Positions 2,388 through 9,355 of a stretch of 24,301 bases of DNA are shown one piece after another (position 1 is the first letter of the stretch; every line of letters starts with the position of its first letter). The notes below the pieces were generated by a model that did not search any database, was not told the origin of the DNA, and was given only the letters and a program-made list of their open reading frames with translations. This DNA comes from a virus: UHGV virus genome UHGV-1420800, one strand, 5' to 3'. The position numbers were made by a program, and so were the translations under genes.

Positions 2388-2798
2388 ATGAAACAGACAA
2401 TTTTCCTCAGGAGTAAGCAACAACAGCAAGCCGCAATCAACGCCATCCTCGCAACACCACTCGATAAAGACAAGCCAGTCACCATCCGCATTACTGACTA
2501 CAAGCGCAACCTTGACCAGAACGCGAAATTTCACGCGATGCTGGCGGATATCGCTCGTCAGGTTCAATGGTGCGGCAAATGGTTAAAACCAGAACAATGG
2601 AAGGTTTTGTTGATAAGCGGTCATGCAGTGGCAACAAAGCAGGAAGCTGATGTTTTGCCCGGCCTTGAAGGCGAATACGTCAACATTCGCGAAAGCAGCG
2701 CGCAGATGAGCGTGAAGCGTATGGCAAGTCTGATCGAGTACACAACAGCCTGGGCTATTGGTCAGGGTGTCAGATTTACCGACAGGAGGTACGAATGA
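2388..2798 (+). CDS. ninB: NinB recombination protein (Orf family)
   Basis: 136 aa from ATG 2388; by-eye similarity to lambda NinB ([32 protein letters not shown]); stop overlaps the ninE start (ATGA). Confidence 0.85.
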
Positions 2799-2971
2799 GA
2801 CGACAGCGACGAAGTATCACCGACATCATCTGCGAAAACTGCAAATACCTTCCAACGAAGCGCTCCAGAAATAAACCCAAGCCAATCCCAAAAGAATCTG
2901 ACGTAAAAACCTTCAACTACACGGCTCACCTGTGGGATATCCGGTGGCTAAGACATCGTGCGAGGAAATGA
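2795..2971 (+). CDS. ninE: NinE protein
   Basis: 58 aa [58 protein letters not shown], nearly identical to remembered lambda NinE; below the 60-aa cutoff of the ORF track; ATGA overlap with ninB. Confidence 0.85.
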
Positions 2972-3333
2972 CAATGGATTATTCACAGTTAAGTGATTTT
3001 GAAATTAACGTGGCGGTATTCGAAGCCATTCATAACGGATCACCGGATTACAAAGAAGGTGAGAATGGCGATATGGTGTTTGTCTCATTTGAGGGAGACA
3101 TTGTAAACGGAGACGCAGTTGAAGTAGAAGTTGAGCGCGGATCCTTTAACCCATGCGCAAACCCAGCAGACGCATGGCCGATTATTGAAAAATACAGGAT
3201 TAGCATTATCAATCTCGATGAAGACGAGTGGGGTGCACGCGGTGTGGCCTACTGTAAATCTAAGCGAGCTATACATGAAAATCCCCTCCGCGCCGCCATG
3301 ATTGTCTTTCTCATGATGCAGAGAATCCAATAA
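2968..3333 (+). CDS. NinX-like hypothetical protein (occupies the ninE-ninF slot)
   Basis: ATG 2968 overlaps the ninE stop; 121 aa acidic protein; position corresponds to ninX of P22-type nin regions. Product identity by position only. Confidence 0.55.
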
Positions 3334-6050: not shown

Positions 6051-6076
6051 CCCCTTATTGTGGGTAAGACATGAAG
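6051..6076 (+). promoter_or_regulatory. Holin dual-start control region (sdi-like stem-loop CCCCTTATTGTGGG plus tandem starts ATG-AAG-ATG)
   Basis: Sequence aatccccttattgtgggtaagacATGaagATG closely resembles the lambda S translation-initiation region that sets the S107 antiholin to S105 holin ratio. Confidence 0.7.
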
Positions 6077-6394
6077 ATGCCAGAAAAACATGACCTGTTA
6101 GCCGCCATTCTCGCGGCAAAGGAACAAGGCATCGGGGCAATCCTTGCGTTTGCAATGGCGTACCTTCGCGGCAGATATAATGGCGGTGCGTTTACAAAAA
6201 CAGTAATCGACGCAACGATGTGCGCCATTATCGCCTGGTTCATTCGTGACCTTCTCGACTTCGCCGGACTAAGTAGCAATCTCGCTTATATAACGAGCGT
6301 GTTCATCGGCTACATCGGTACTGACTCGATTGGTTCGCTTATCAAACGCTTCGCTGCTAAAAAAGCCGGAGTAGAAGATGGTGGAAATCAATAA
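6071..6394 (+). CDS. S: Holin, lambda S family (class I, dual start Met1/Met3)
   Basis: 107 aa [39 protein letters not shown]..., essentially identical to remembered lambda S107 (one difference seen near the C-terminus). Confidence 0.95.
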
Positions 6395-6854
6395 TCAACG
6401 TAAGGCGTTCCTCGATATGCTGGCGTGGTCAGAGGGAACTGATAACGGACGACAGAAAACCAGAAATCATGGTTATGACGTCATTGTTGGCGGAGAGCTA
6501 TTCACTGATTACTCCGATCACCCTCGCAAACTTGTCACGCTAAACCAAAAACTCAAATCAACAGCAGCCGGGCGCTATCAGCTTCTTTCCCGTTGGTGGG
6601 ATGCCTACCGTAAGCAGCTTGGCCTGAAAGACTTCTCTCCCAAAAGTCAGGACGCTGTTGCGCTGCAGCAGATTAAGGAACGTGGCGCTTTGCCGATGAT
6701 TGATCGCGGTGATATCCGTCAGGCAATCGACCGTTGCAGCAATATCTGGGCTTCACTGCCGGGTGCTGGTTATGGTCAGTTTGAGCATAAGGCTGATAGC
6801 CTGATTGCAAAATTCAAAGAAGCAGGCGGAACGGTCAGAGAGATTGAAGTATGA
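6378..6854 (+). CDS. R: Endolysin, lambda R family (lytic transglycosylase)
   Basis: 158 aa [23 protein letters not shown]... matches lambda R in sequence and length; start overlaps the S 3' end as in lambda. Confidence 0.95.
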
Positions 6855-7318
6855 GTAGAGTAACCGCGATTATCTCTGCTCTGGTTATCTGCATCATCAT
6901 CTGTCTGTCATGGGCTGTTAATCATTACCGTGATAACGCTATCGCCTACAAAGAGCAGCGCGATAACAAGGCCAGTGAACTGGAGAAGGCGAACGCCACC
7001 ATTACTGACATGCAGCAGCGCCAGCGTGATGCTGATGCACTCGATGCTAAATACACGAAGGAGTTAGCTGATGCGAAAGCTGAAAATGATGCTCTTCGGC
7101 GCAAGCTTGATAATGGTGGCAGGGTGCTCGTCAAAGGAAAATGCCCTGTGCCATCCTCAGACGAAACCTCCAGCGCCTCCGGCATGGGCAATGATGCCAC
7201 CGTCGAACTCTCTCCAGTTGCTGGACGAAACGTTCTCGGTGTCCGGGACGGAATTATCCGCGACCAAACAGCACTGAGAACGCTTCAGGAATACATCAGG
7301 ACGCAATGCCTTCGATGA
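6851..7318 (+). CDS. Rz: Spanin, inner-membrane subunit (Rz / i-spanin)
   Basis: 155 aa with N-terminal TM segment ([18 protein letters not shown]) and coiled-coil periplasmic domain; follows R with ATGA overlap; lambda Rz-like. Confidence 0.9.
7071..7277 (+). CDS. Rz1: Spanin, outer-membrane lipoprotein subunit (Rz1 / o-spanin), embedded in the +1 frame of Rz
   Basis: ATG 7071 with AAGGAG 7 nt upstream; signal peptide plus lipobox (LIMVAGCSS) and proline-rich segment KPPAPPAW; embedded architecture as lambda Rz1. Confidence 0.8.
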
Positions 7319-7758
7319 TAGCGATAATTCTACTCATCATCCTTCACATCTGGCTCTGTAGACAGGGTGGTGATCACTTCTGGAGTGAATCCAGATTAAA
7401 CATCTCATTGCTGATGCTTGAAGTTGAGCATCTGGCGCGCGGTAAGGGGCTGCGTTGAGATAAGAGCCAGTTCATTACAAATCCTATCTACGGGTGGGCT
7501 TGATAATGAAACCGGAGTTAATTTCTGGTCACTAATTAACGGCAGTACAGCGAAACAACCCAAGCCAGTAAGCGGGGAAATAACACTGGCAGCCACTGAA
7601 AGATGAACCTCCTGCCTTATGGCAAAAAAGATTCTTTGTGGTGGCGGACTGATGGAAAGACATCGGATAGAATCAAGCAGTGGCTAGGGTAGTTCCCGAA
7701 AAGCGGACTCGTCACCGCCTGCCACTGAATCTATGGCGAACAACTAGACGAGGTTGTG

Positions 7759-7974
7759 ATGGATGATAACGGAAACCAATGGATCAATGTTGAACACCGG
7801 CTACCAGAAAGCAAAGAAGGGATGTGGTCTAAAGAGGTTATAGCTCTTACTGATACTGGTGACGTGTTCAAACTATCATGTATGGGCTCTTACTGGCAGA
7901 GAACCAAGGCATTCATCGATTCAGGAGCAAGCAAGGTTACACACTGGATGCCGCTTAATTACCCAGATGATTAA
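7759..7974 (+). CDS. Hypothetical protein, DUF551-like (C-terminal THWMPLNYP motif)
   Basis: 71 aa from ATG 7759 (GTG at 7756 also possible), RBS-like GAGG upstream. The HW-PL-P C-terminal motif is typical of a widespread small phage protein family; function unknown. Confidence 0.55.
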   Translation: MDDNGNQWINVEHRLPESKEGMWSKEVIALTDTGDVFKLSCMGSYWQRTKAFIDSGASKVTHWMPLNYPDD

Positions 7975-7988
7975 AACGGATGAAAAAT

Positions 7989-8016
7989 GAAAGGTCGCTC
8001 AGGCGGCCTTTTTTAT
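7989..8016 (+). terminator. Intrinsic terminator
   Basis: aaaggtcgc / gcggccttt 9-bp stem (one G-U pair) with tcag loop, followed by tttatt; immediately downstream of the 7759-7974 ORF. Confidence 0.6.
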
Positions 8017-8121: not shown

Positions 8122-8364
8122 ATGGCAGAGATTATTCCCATGACTGAAGAACAGAAATTCCAGTTAGAGATTTACAAGCTGGTCATGAACCAGAACGCAG
8201 CCGCAGAAGAAGCATTTCAATTCATTGGCACTGACGAACTGAAGCTTGAGCTATTCAAAATTCACTTCCAGTCAGGCGGCGCTAATTCAGATATCACGAC
8301 CCGCACTATCGAAGCGGTGCGTAAATCGAAGGAAGCGTTAGACCTGTTCACCACCGGAGTGTAA
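8122..8364 (+). CDS. Hypothetical protein (80 aa, acidic; same slot and size as P22 orf80)
   Basis: ATG-initiated 80-codon ORF between lysis and terminase genes; weak RBS; no domain recognised. Confidence 0.45.
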   Translation: MAEIIPMTEEQKFQLEIYKLVMNQNAAAEEAFQFIGTDELKLELFKIHFQSGGANSDITTRTIEAVRKSKEALDLFTTGV

Positions 8365-8367
8365 GAG

Positions 8368-8655
8368 ATGACTGAACAAGAAATGCCGAGATACCAGTGC
8401 CACAAAAAAGTTCGCGCCCTGAAGATTGGCTCTATAGAACATAAGCCAAACCCAGATCAGTCTGGTAAGACTGGCTCTTCTAGTTATGGGGCAATTATTC
8501 ATCCGGATGATAAGAAATACGCAGCATTTGATGTTAGCGCGGAATATATCTGTAAGCACCGACCAATGTCTGGAGGCTATTACGTTGTCTATGAGGATGG
8601 ATATGAATCATATTCTCCTGCTGAGGTATTTGAGTCTGGATATTCAAAATTATAG
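8368..8655 (+). CDS. Hypothetical protein (95 aa, Tyr/Gly-rich C-terminus)
   Basis: ATG 8368 with GGAG upstream, 4 nt after the stop of the preceding ORF; no family recognised. Confidence 0.5.
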   Translation: MTEQEMPRYQCHKKVRALKIGSIEHKPNPDQSGKTGSSSYGAIIHPDDKKYAAFDVSAEYICKHRPMSGGYYVVYEDGYESYSPAEVFESGYSKL

Positions 8656-8664
8656 GAACCCTCT

Positions 8665-8844
8665 ATGACAAGCGTCGTTGATCTTGGTAAGGAGAAGAAA
8701 TTCCCAATTACTCAAGAGCTATACGAGCGGCTTGAAAGCGTCATCCATGATTACGATGGTGAAATCAGTTTATGCGAGGCGATTGGCGCACTCGAATTGC
8801 TGAAGCAGTCACTGATTGAAGGCGCGAAAGAGTCCTTAACCTGA
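8665..8844 (+). CDS. Hypothetical protein (59 aa)
   Basis: MTSVVDLGKEKKFPITQELYERLESVIHDYDGEISLCEAIGALELLKQSLIEGAKESLT; not in the ORF track (<60 aa); fills the gap before the small terminase gene. Confidence 0.4.
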   Translation: MTSVVDLGKEKKFPITQELYERLESVIHDYDGEISLCEAIGALELLKQSLIEGAKESLT

Positions 8845-8860
8845 ATAACGATTAAGTGAG

Positions 8861-9355
8861 ATGAATATGGCAGCACCAAAGGGCAACCGATTTTGGGAGG
8901 CCCGCAGTAGTCATGGGCGAAACCCTAAATTCGAATCGCCTGAGGCGCTGTGGGCTGCTTGTTGTGAATACTTCGAGTGGGTTGAAGCTAACCCGCTATG
9001 GGAGATGAAGGCGTTCTCGTATCAGGGTGAAGTGATACAAGAGCCTATCGCCAAGATGCGAGCGATGACCATTACCGGCCTCACTCTGTTCATTGATGTG
9101 ACGCTTGAAACATGGCGCACATATCGCCTGCGAGAAGATTTATCTGAAGTCGTTACGCGAGCAGAGCAGGTCATCTACGACCAGAAATTCTCTGGCGCAG
9201 CCGCTGACCTTCTCAACGCTAACATCATCGCCCGTGATTTGGGCCTCAAAGAGCAGTCGCAAGTTGAAGACGTGACACCTGATAAGGGAGATCGCGATAA
9301 GCGACGCTCTCGTATCAAGGAGCTATTCAACCGTGGAACTGGACGCGATTCTTGA
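8861..9355 (+). CDS. 3: Terminase small subunit (P22 gp3-like)
   Basis: 164 aa (or 162 from the second ATG at 8867); N-terminus [22 protein letters not shown] recognised as P22 gp3; contains the pac-like sequence; overlaps the large terminase start. Confidence 0.9.
9134..9155 (+). other. Candidate pac site (headful packaging initiation sequence) inside the small terminase gene
   Basis: GAAGATTTATCTGAAGTCGTTA at 9134-9155, matching my recollection of the 22-bp P22 pac site, about 270 nt into gene 3. Confidence 0.55.

Follow-up and report, generated by a model that had tools for sequence, protein, structure and literature searches.

What is encoded by the three small open reading frames (ORFs) between the lysis cassette and the terminase genes of a P22-like phage, and could any of them act against host defence? 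This question was addressed for a virus sequence of 24,301 nucleotides (UHGV virus genome UHGV-1420800), the whole of which is referred to as the window. The window, an E. coli phage or prophage, is P22-like (Lederbergvirus-type), and its closest sequenced relative was phage IME10, with 84% of the window covered at 96.8% identity. Upstream, the lysis cassette comprised the holin (6071–6394; identified by position and the annotation of relatives), the endolysin (6378–6854), Rz (6851–7318) and Rz1 (7071–7277). The downstream boundary of the slot was gene 3, the terminase small subunit (8861–9355, plus strand; PF16677 GP3_package, E 4e-33; PHROG 606). ORF80 (8122–8364), ORF95 (8368–8655) and ORF59 (8665–8844), named by their length in amino acids, were all located on the plus strand in one common reading frame. 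They were separated by gaps of 3 and 9 bases; the first junction consisted of TAA and one further codon, the second of TAG and three further codons. An intrinsic-terminator-like hairpin followed by a U-run (7989–8016, plus strand) closed the upstream DUF551 unit and preceded ORF80. Its RNA fold had an energy of −18.1 kcal/mol (z = −3.6), and none of 200 shuffled sequences was as stable. The hairpin was not listed by a simple consensus terminator scan, although direct folding supported it. Hence, the tight packing of the three ORFs and the upstream terminator, both described in the initial annotation from the letters of the sequence, were reproduced.

The initial annotation had also regarded a lack of reading-frame conservation among close relatives as evidence against its proposals. 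The opposite was found, and all three ORFs were conserved, with PHROG E values of 3e-41, 1e-54 and 1e-40 for ORF80, ORF95 and ORF59, respectively. Among 5,426 complete E. coli genomes, 49 had the whole arrangement and 911 had parts of it. Judged by these comparisons of sequence, the three ORFs are real, conserved coding sequences. ORF95 was AT-richer than its surroundings, with a GC content of 41.8% against 49.6% for the window.

Several features were observed in the interval between Rz and the three ORFs. ORF72 (7756–7974, plus strand) encoded a DUF551 protein (Pfam, E 1e-9), and a full-length Rfam int-alpA RNA motif (RF02996) was located directly upstream of it at 7677–7739 on the plus strand (42.3 bits, gathering score 35.8; E 6e-7). 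Together with the terminator at 7989–8016, the motif and ORF72 resembled a self-contained moron-like unit. Small ORFs on the minus strand (7405–7663) and a terminator-like hairpin on the same strand (7608–7629) were found between Rz and ORF72. A 43-aa minus-strand ORF of this stretch was conserved in IME10 (locus L025, 2570–2824), and the equivalent interval of P22 contained the opposite-strand pid moron.

The initial annotation had found no recognisable domain in any of the three ORFs, which did not hold. ORF80 matched Pfam DUF2560 over the full length of the profile (positions 1–72 of 72) with 147.7 bits, the cut-off being 25. It corresponded to P22 orf80, HK620 hkbM and Sf6 gp67, and was an acidic four-helix protein with a pI of 4.72, in agreement with the acidity noted at the outset. 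ORF59 matched PHROG 3546 along positions 1–59 of 59 and corresponded to P22 orf59c, HK620 hkbN and Sf6 gp68. It was acidic, and its two predicted helices had low-to-moderate confidence in an AF2 model of an ORF95–ORF59 fusion. At the DNA level, the matched parts of ORF80 and ORF59 were approximately 96% identical to P22 orf80 and orf59c, HK620 hkbM and hkbN, and Sf6 genes 67 and 68. Furthermore, ORF59 was positioned directly upstream of a P22-type gene 3, as in P22, HK620 and Sf6. Both families were narrow and enterobacterial, with 92 clusters for ORF80 and 65 for ORF59, and all of the latter were at least 70% identical. The two ORFs were direct orthologues of P22 orf80 and orf59c, alike in order and position; the P22 genes are adjacent, whereas the ORF95 cassette sits between the orthologues in the window. 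A P22 phage with a deletion across orf25–orf80 was still viable, and orf80 was reported to be dispensable (PMC11016777). The literature held nothing functional on DUF2560 or orf59c, a direct sequence search of the PDB with ORF80 gave no match, and nothing was found that tied ORF80 or ORF59 to defence. ORF80 and ORF59 are ordinary in this sense, that is, already-known and conserved accessory genes of P22.

ORF95 had no match in Pfam (E ≤ 1), NCBIfam or PADLOC, and the NCBIfam and PADLOC scans of all window ORFs returned nothing meaningful. More than 444 clusters of homologues were obtained in a first homologue search. The exhaustive profile search gave 4,997 clusters at 50% identity with E ≤ 1e-3, of which 3,087 had E ≤ 1e-10, and this comparison identifies ORF95 as a member of a large unnamed family of about 5,000 clusters that has no Pfam model. 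Two conserved cores were recognised, namely P-x-Y-Q-C-H-K-x-V-x-A-L-K-I near the start and P-x-x-G-G-Y-Y-V-V-Y-x-D-G-Y-x-S-x-S-P-A-x-x-F-E-x-G-Y at the end. The second core contained the Tyr/Gly-rich C-terminus that had been pointed out originally, which is real and is the signature motif of the whole family. Among the polar residues, K13 was invariant and C11, H12, K63, H64, D77 and E89 were near-invariant; Y9 was also counted among the invariant set. The ORF95 part of the AF2 fusion model (P0002) had a pLDDT of about 90 and the order β1-β2-β3-α-β4-β5, which is typical of an OB fold. Many members of the family appeared to be stand-alone proteins, and among the best 150 representatives, 31 had at most 110 aa and 60 had 111–149 aa.

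The family extended well beyond P22-like phages. Homologues with 47–55% identity were found in a Morganella prophage with an HK97-type head as well as in lytic phages of Ralstonia, Pseudomonas, Burkholderia and Salmonella, where their neighbours were frequently early genes or genes of DNA metabolism. A protein identical to ORF95 was encoded by phage Bas106 of the BASEL collection. The database labels of two homologues, "head-tail adaptor" (AhaGv) and "capsid decoration protein" (Dolphis), were not used as evidence. The annotation of Ralstonia phage AhaGv (L004, OR820515.1) appeared inconsistent with its gene sizes, with a 198-bp "terminase large subunit" and a 92-aa ORF95 homologue as the "head-tail adaptor". 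Among three proteins of the family (P0278, P0368 and P0314), two had a tandem duplication of the OB domain, and one was a 4,188-aa protein with 28 partial matches to the GGYYVVY-DGY motif region.

The relationship of ORF95 to proteins of known structure was explored with profile and structure searches, as the initial annotation had proposed; these searches returned DUF2560 for ORF80 and, for ORF95, the decoration protein Dec of phage L. The OB fold of Dec was reportedly novel and without relatives. Four independent tests showed homology between ORF95 and the capsid-binding OB-fold domain of Dec (PDB 6E3C). Dec was matched with an E value of 0.014 in the PDB-wide profile search with ORF95, and hhalign aligned residues 6–95 of ORF95 with residues 10–90 of Dec at 88% probability (E 3e-6). 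Moreover, Dec was the only Foldseek match with E ≤ 1e-3 among 350,542 chains. The N-terminal OB-fold domain of Dec (residues 10–77) had its counterpart in ORF95, and the core motifs P-x-x-GGY and F-E-x-x-Y were common to both proteins. The gene context was also alike. In phages L and ST64T, the order was Rz/Rz1, orf118 (DUF2560), orf129, dec and gene 3, so that dec occupied the slot of ORF95 directly upstream of terminase gene 3. The orf129 of phage L, just upstream of dec (L013, 1989–2378), contained an HExxH motif (HECAH), and a PhageMetallopep gene was located directly before an ORF95-like gene in a metagenomic locus (L012, 4322–4963). A metallopeptidase-like gene and a Dec-type OB gene may be a recurring pair.

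The features by which Dec holds the capsid were different. ORF95 ended at about Dec residue 90, and the C-terminal trimerising β-helix spike (Dec residues ~93–134), which is needed for capsid binding, was absent. A truncated Dec without this spike (Dec1-98) still folds but fails to bind P22 virions (PMC11398494). Five capsid-contact residues have been mapped in Dec, namely K30, Y31, Y49, Y71 and E73 (PMC6449081), which aligned with E24, H25, D55, D77 and Y79 of ORF95, and none of the five was conserved. Conversely, the set of Y9, C11, H12, K13, K63, H64, D77 and E89 that was invariant in the ORF95 family was absent from Dec. The ORF95 family was further distinguished by its occurrence across phages with unrelated capsids, which makes a conserved target independent of capsid type more likely. 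On these alignments, a decoration role like that of Dec is improbable for ORF95.

The two ORFs on either side of the ORF95–ORF59 junction (8653–8664, plus strand) are in frame. The TAG of ORF95 overlapped the Shine–Dalgarno sequence of ORF59 (TAGGAA), and a single T-to-C or T-to-G change in this stop codon (to CAG or GAG) produced a 158-aa ORF95–ORF59 fusion in a few prophages (P0001 and P0002; loci L008, 4001–4477, and L009, 1381–1857). The junction alignment indicated that these were independent stop-loss variants. The split form was dominant, with 275 member sequences against single-member fusion clusters. In the AF2 model of the fusion P0002, the ORF95 part was not packed confidently on the ORF59 part, and the linker had a pLDDT below 50. 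Programmed read-through of the TAG was considered and rejected, as no signal supported it and the split form was dominant. Tails resembling ORF59 had been seen by eye on the distant ORF95 homologues P0054, P0034 and P0036; this idea was rejected because hhalign with the ORF59 profile gave a probability of only 0.2–5%. In terms of sequence, the link between ORF95 and ORF59 rests only on near-identical enterobacterial stop-loss fusions.

The content of the slot was compared among relatives, and its description in the initial annotation as a variable site for accessory genes of P22-like phages was borne out, as P22, phage L, Sf6, IME10, Bas106 and Dewey all differed. In P22, orf80 was followed directly by orf59c. 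Bas106 had the order Rha–ORF95–ORF59 without orf80, and Dewey had DUF2560 and ORF95 followed by a different small terminase. The slot of Sf6 contained an Acb4-family gene, a DUF2560 gene and an orf59c-like gene; the first of these, gene 66, was directly upstream of the DUF2560 gene and matched the Acb4 family with an E value of 4e-35. Three ORFs were present in the slot of IME10: one of 166 aa in which a Tad2-like domain is fused to an ORF95-type motif, one of 126 aa from the Acb4 family, and DUF2560. The fusion was supported by BLASTP against the Pfam-validated P0323 (E 8e-22) and by hhalign (90%), and the 126-aa ORF was 98% identical to Sf6 gp66. In the RefSeq record of IME10 (L025, NC_019501.1), nothing was annotated between Rz and gene 3 despite ORFs at 1959–2459 and 2751–3131. 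From this comparison of gene orders, ORF80, ORF95 and ORF59 appear as independently assorting accessory cassettes, with ORF95 being an inserted one that is missing from P22. The best reading is that the lysis–terminase slot of P22-like phages would behave as a hotspot for immune-signalling blockers.

The domains to which ORF95-type domains are fused were then evaluated. A Pfam scan covered 58 of the longer proteins in the family, BLAST was used to cluster their tails together with those of five earlier matches, and one phage record was scanned. PF21825 (crAss001_48) was identified by Pfam in 6 of the 58 members; P0053 and a protein of Burkholderia phage BCSR129 were confirmed separately by Pfam, and others by BLAST clustering. 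PF13876 (Phage_gp49_66) was found in three fusions by Pfam and in six by clustering. Three fusions carried a PF11195 Tad2-like domain (P0290, P0323 and P0352), and two or three carried the PF24729 Acb2/Tad1 hairpin (P0356, P0365 and, weakly, P0407). PF13876 is the Acb4 family of anti-CBASS sponges, and PF21825 is Sequestin, a sponge of 3'cADPR (bioRxiv 10.1101/2025.07.12.664507). A literature search for crAss001_48 by name found nothing. Partners other than sponges were also present, including DUF551 (P0308 and P0370), PP-binding, DUF2158, SpoIIE and many unassigned tails, together with two tandem ORF95-type copies and several further single-case fusions. The DUF551 family of the neighbouring ORF72 may belong to the pool of accessory domains with which ORF95 is shuffled. 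In another phage (L019), the OB–Tad2 fusion P0290 was flanked by the portal and capsid genes within the head-gene module; location in a late or structural operon can therefore be reconciled with an anti-defence function.

A further sponge was identified in the N-terminal alignment with the anti-Thoeris protein RyR Tad, gp68 of Pectobacterium phage vB_PatP_CB1. The N-terminal domain of gp68 had the ORF95 signature (YQ[CS]HK-VWA ... GY-VVY ... S-SP--F--G), and hhalign of ORF95 with gp68 residues 1–70 gave a probability of 95.2% (E 2.8e-8; 37% identity). Unlike the stand-alone, full-length ORF95, this domain lacked the central part, a deletion of about 30 residues (residues about 27–60) that included K63 and H64, and was fused to a gcADPR-binding RyR-repeat sponge domain. 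Hence, on domain matches, fusions connect the ORF95 domain family with five sponge families that have been validated experimentally, namely Tad2, Acb2/Tad1, Acb4, Sequestin and RyR Tad.

Sponge domains are often fused to each other, and Sequestin was found via Pfam families fused to known sponges (bioRxiv 10.1101/2025.07.12.664507); ORF95 agrees with the criterion of that study, as it is small, phage-encoded and from a family in which fusions to known sponge domains recur. The sponge families named by April 2026 were Tad1, Tad2, Acb2, Acb4, Sequestin, Lockin and TadIV-1 (PMC13243611); none of them has an OB fold. ORF95 resembles Tad1, Tad2, Acb2, Acb4, Sequestin and Lockin in its small size and phage origin, and its family is recurrently fused to four of these; unlike them, it has an OB fold and lies outside these families by sequence. 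It belonged to none of PF11195, PF13876, PF21825 and PF24729 at E ≤ 1. Lockin was considered as a relative and rejected, as it had no match to the ORF95 family. The pockets of sponges are described as positively charged and located at the protomer interfaces of homo-oligomers. The conservation of K13, K63, H12 and H64 is no more than suggestive of such pockets in ORF95. The near-neutral pI of ORF95 (6.4), the fusion partners that are not sponges and the lack of a match to the named sponge families in Pfam were points against its being a sponge.

The following mechanism is proposed. The three ORFs would be independent, horizontally shuffled cassettes in the lysis–terminase slot, and by analogy with lambdoid late operons they may be transcribed together with the head genes when antitermination allows read-through at the 7989–8016 terminator. 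ORF95 would then bind a signal molecule or another conserved ligand through Y9, C11, H12, K13, K63, H64, D77 and E89, acting probably as a homo-oligomer, and would counter nucleotide-signalling immunity of the CBASS or Thoeris type. Guilt by association makes such counter-defence the most likely role of ORF95, in a tentative reading that is quite possibly correct. The initial annotation had suggested host-takeover or anti-defence functions for all three accessory genes. The anti-defence part of this suggestion was retained for ORF95 only, on the indirect evidence of the fusions to five sponge families; for ORF80 and ORF59, no evidence of any function was found. One direct datum against counter-defence by ORF95 came from RyR Tad, whose N-terminal domain alone had no anti-Thoeris-I activity and was a domain-swapped dimerisation element in the crystal structure (bioRxiv 10.64898/2026.06.04.730250). 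This datum was tempered by the fact that the domain lacks the central ~30 residues.

It is rather unlikely that the three ORFs are unrelated to defence or unimportant, for example as small nucleic-acid-binding or regulatory proteins that tune late expression or packaging. The viability of the P22 orf25–orf80 deletion phage (PMC11016777), the lack of any match in PADLOC or NCBIfam and the constant position of ORF59 next to P22-type packaging genes speak for this explanation. However, strong purifying conservation of all three ORFs argued for a function, the slots of Sf6 and IME10 held validated sponge families, and the recurrent fusion of the ORF95 family to five of these families was hard to reconcile with a packaging or regulatory role.

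The RyR Tad structure also bears on an unlikely explanation, in which the ORF95-type domain serves generally for oligomerisation or as a scaffold, binds no ligand and dimerises the sponge domains in the fusions, the stand-alone form being paired with ORF59 or another small phage protein. The domain-swapped, inactive N-terminal domain of RyR Tad (bioRxiv 10.64898/2026.06.04.730250) fits this role, as do the many unrelated tails of ORF95-type domains and the tolerance of natural ORF95–ORF59 fusions. That domain is a shortened one, however, without residues about 27–60, including K63 and H64, and the invariant or near-invariant polar residues of the family suggested a specific binding or active site beyond a mere interface. 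Furthermore, many of the members appeared to stand alone. The co-occurrence of ORF59 with ORF95 was inconsistent, and the ORF59 profile failed to match the tails of distant family members.

It is very improbable that ORF95 is a capsid decoration (cementing) protein that binds the mature capsid by its OB fold like Dec, perhaps with ORF59 providing the oligomerisation of the missing spike via in-frame read-through or a fusion product: the homology to the Dec OB domain, the equivalent position of dec directly upstream of gene 3, the late operon, a window coat protein 73% identical to that of P22 and with four of the five Dec-site residues unchanged or conservatively replaced, and the in-frame, sometimes naturally fused ORF59 speak for it, but ORF95 stops where the spike starts, a form in which Dec binds no P22 virions (PMC11398494), keeps none of the five contact residues, has homologues of 50–55% identity both in an HK97-type prophage and in phages of Ralstonia, Pseudomonas and Burkholderia whose capsids are unrelated, frequently surrounded by early genes, and is rarely fused to ORF59, with which the modelled packing was not confident and without which it occurs in Dewey, just as P22 has ORF59 without ORF95.

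Counter-defence by ORF95 thus remained the preferred reading, and its meaning for the wider family can be considered. Extended to the family as a whole, the proposal is doubtful: ORF95-type OB domains would constitute a widespread and new family of immune-signal sponges or other counter-defence proteins, and Dec would be a descendant that acquired a trimeric spike together with a surface for capsid binding. If this is true, Pfam-based fusion screens missed the family, which would have escaped such a query because it has no Pfam model. The "novel" OB fold of Dec gains an evolutionary context, as it now falls within a family of about 5,000 clusters that is spread over many unrelated phages. The gene cluster itself is ordinary and recurrent, and the novelty lies in ORF95 as a relative of Dec and a candidate against immune signalling. 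Bas106, which encodes an identical ORF95, makes a direct genetic test practical. ORF95 is a concrete and cheaply testable candidate for a further counter-defence family and a credible new lead.
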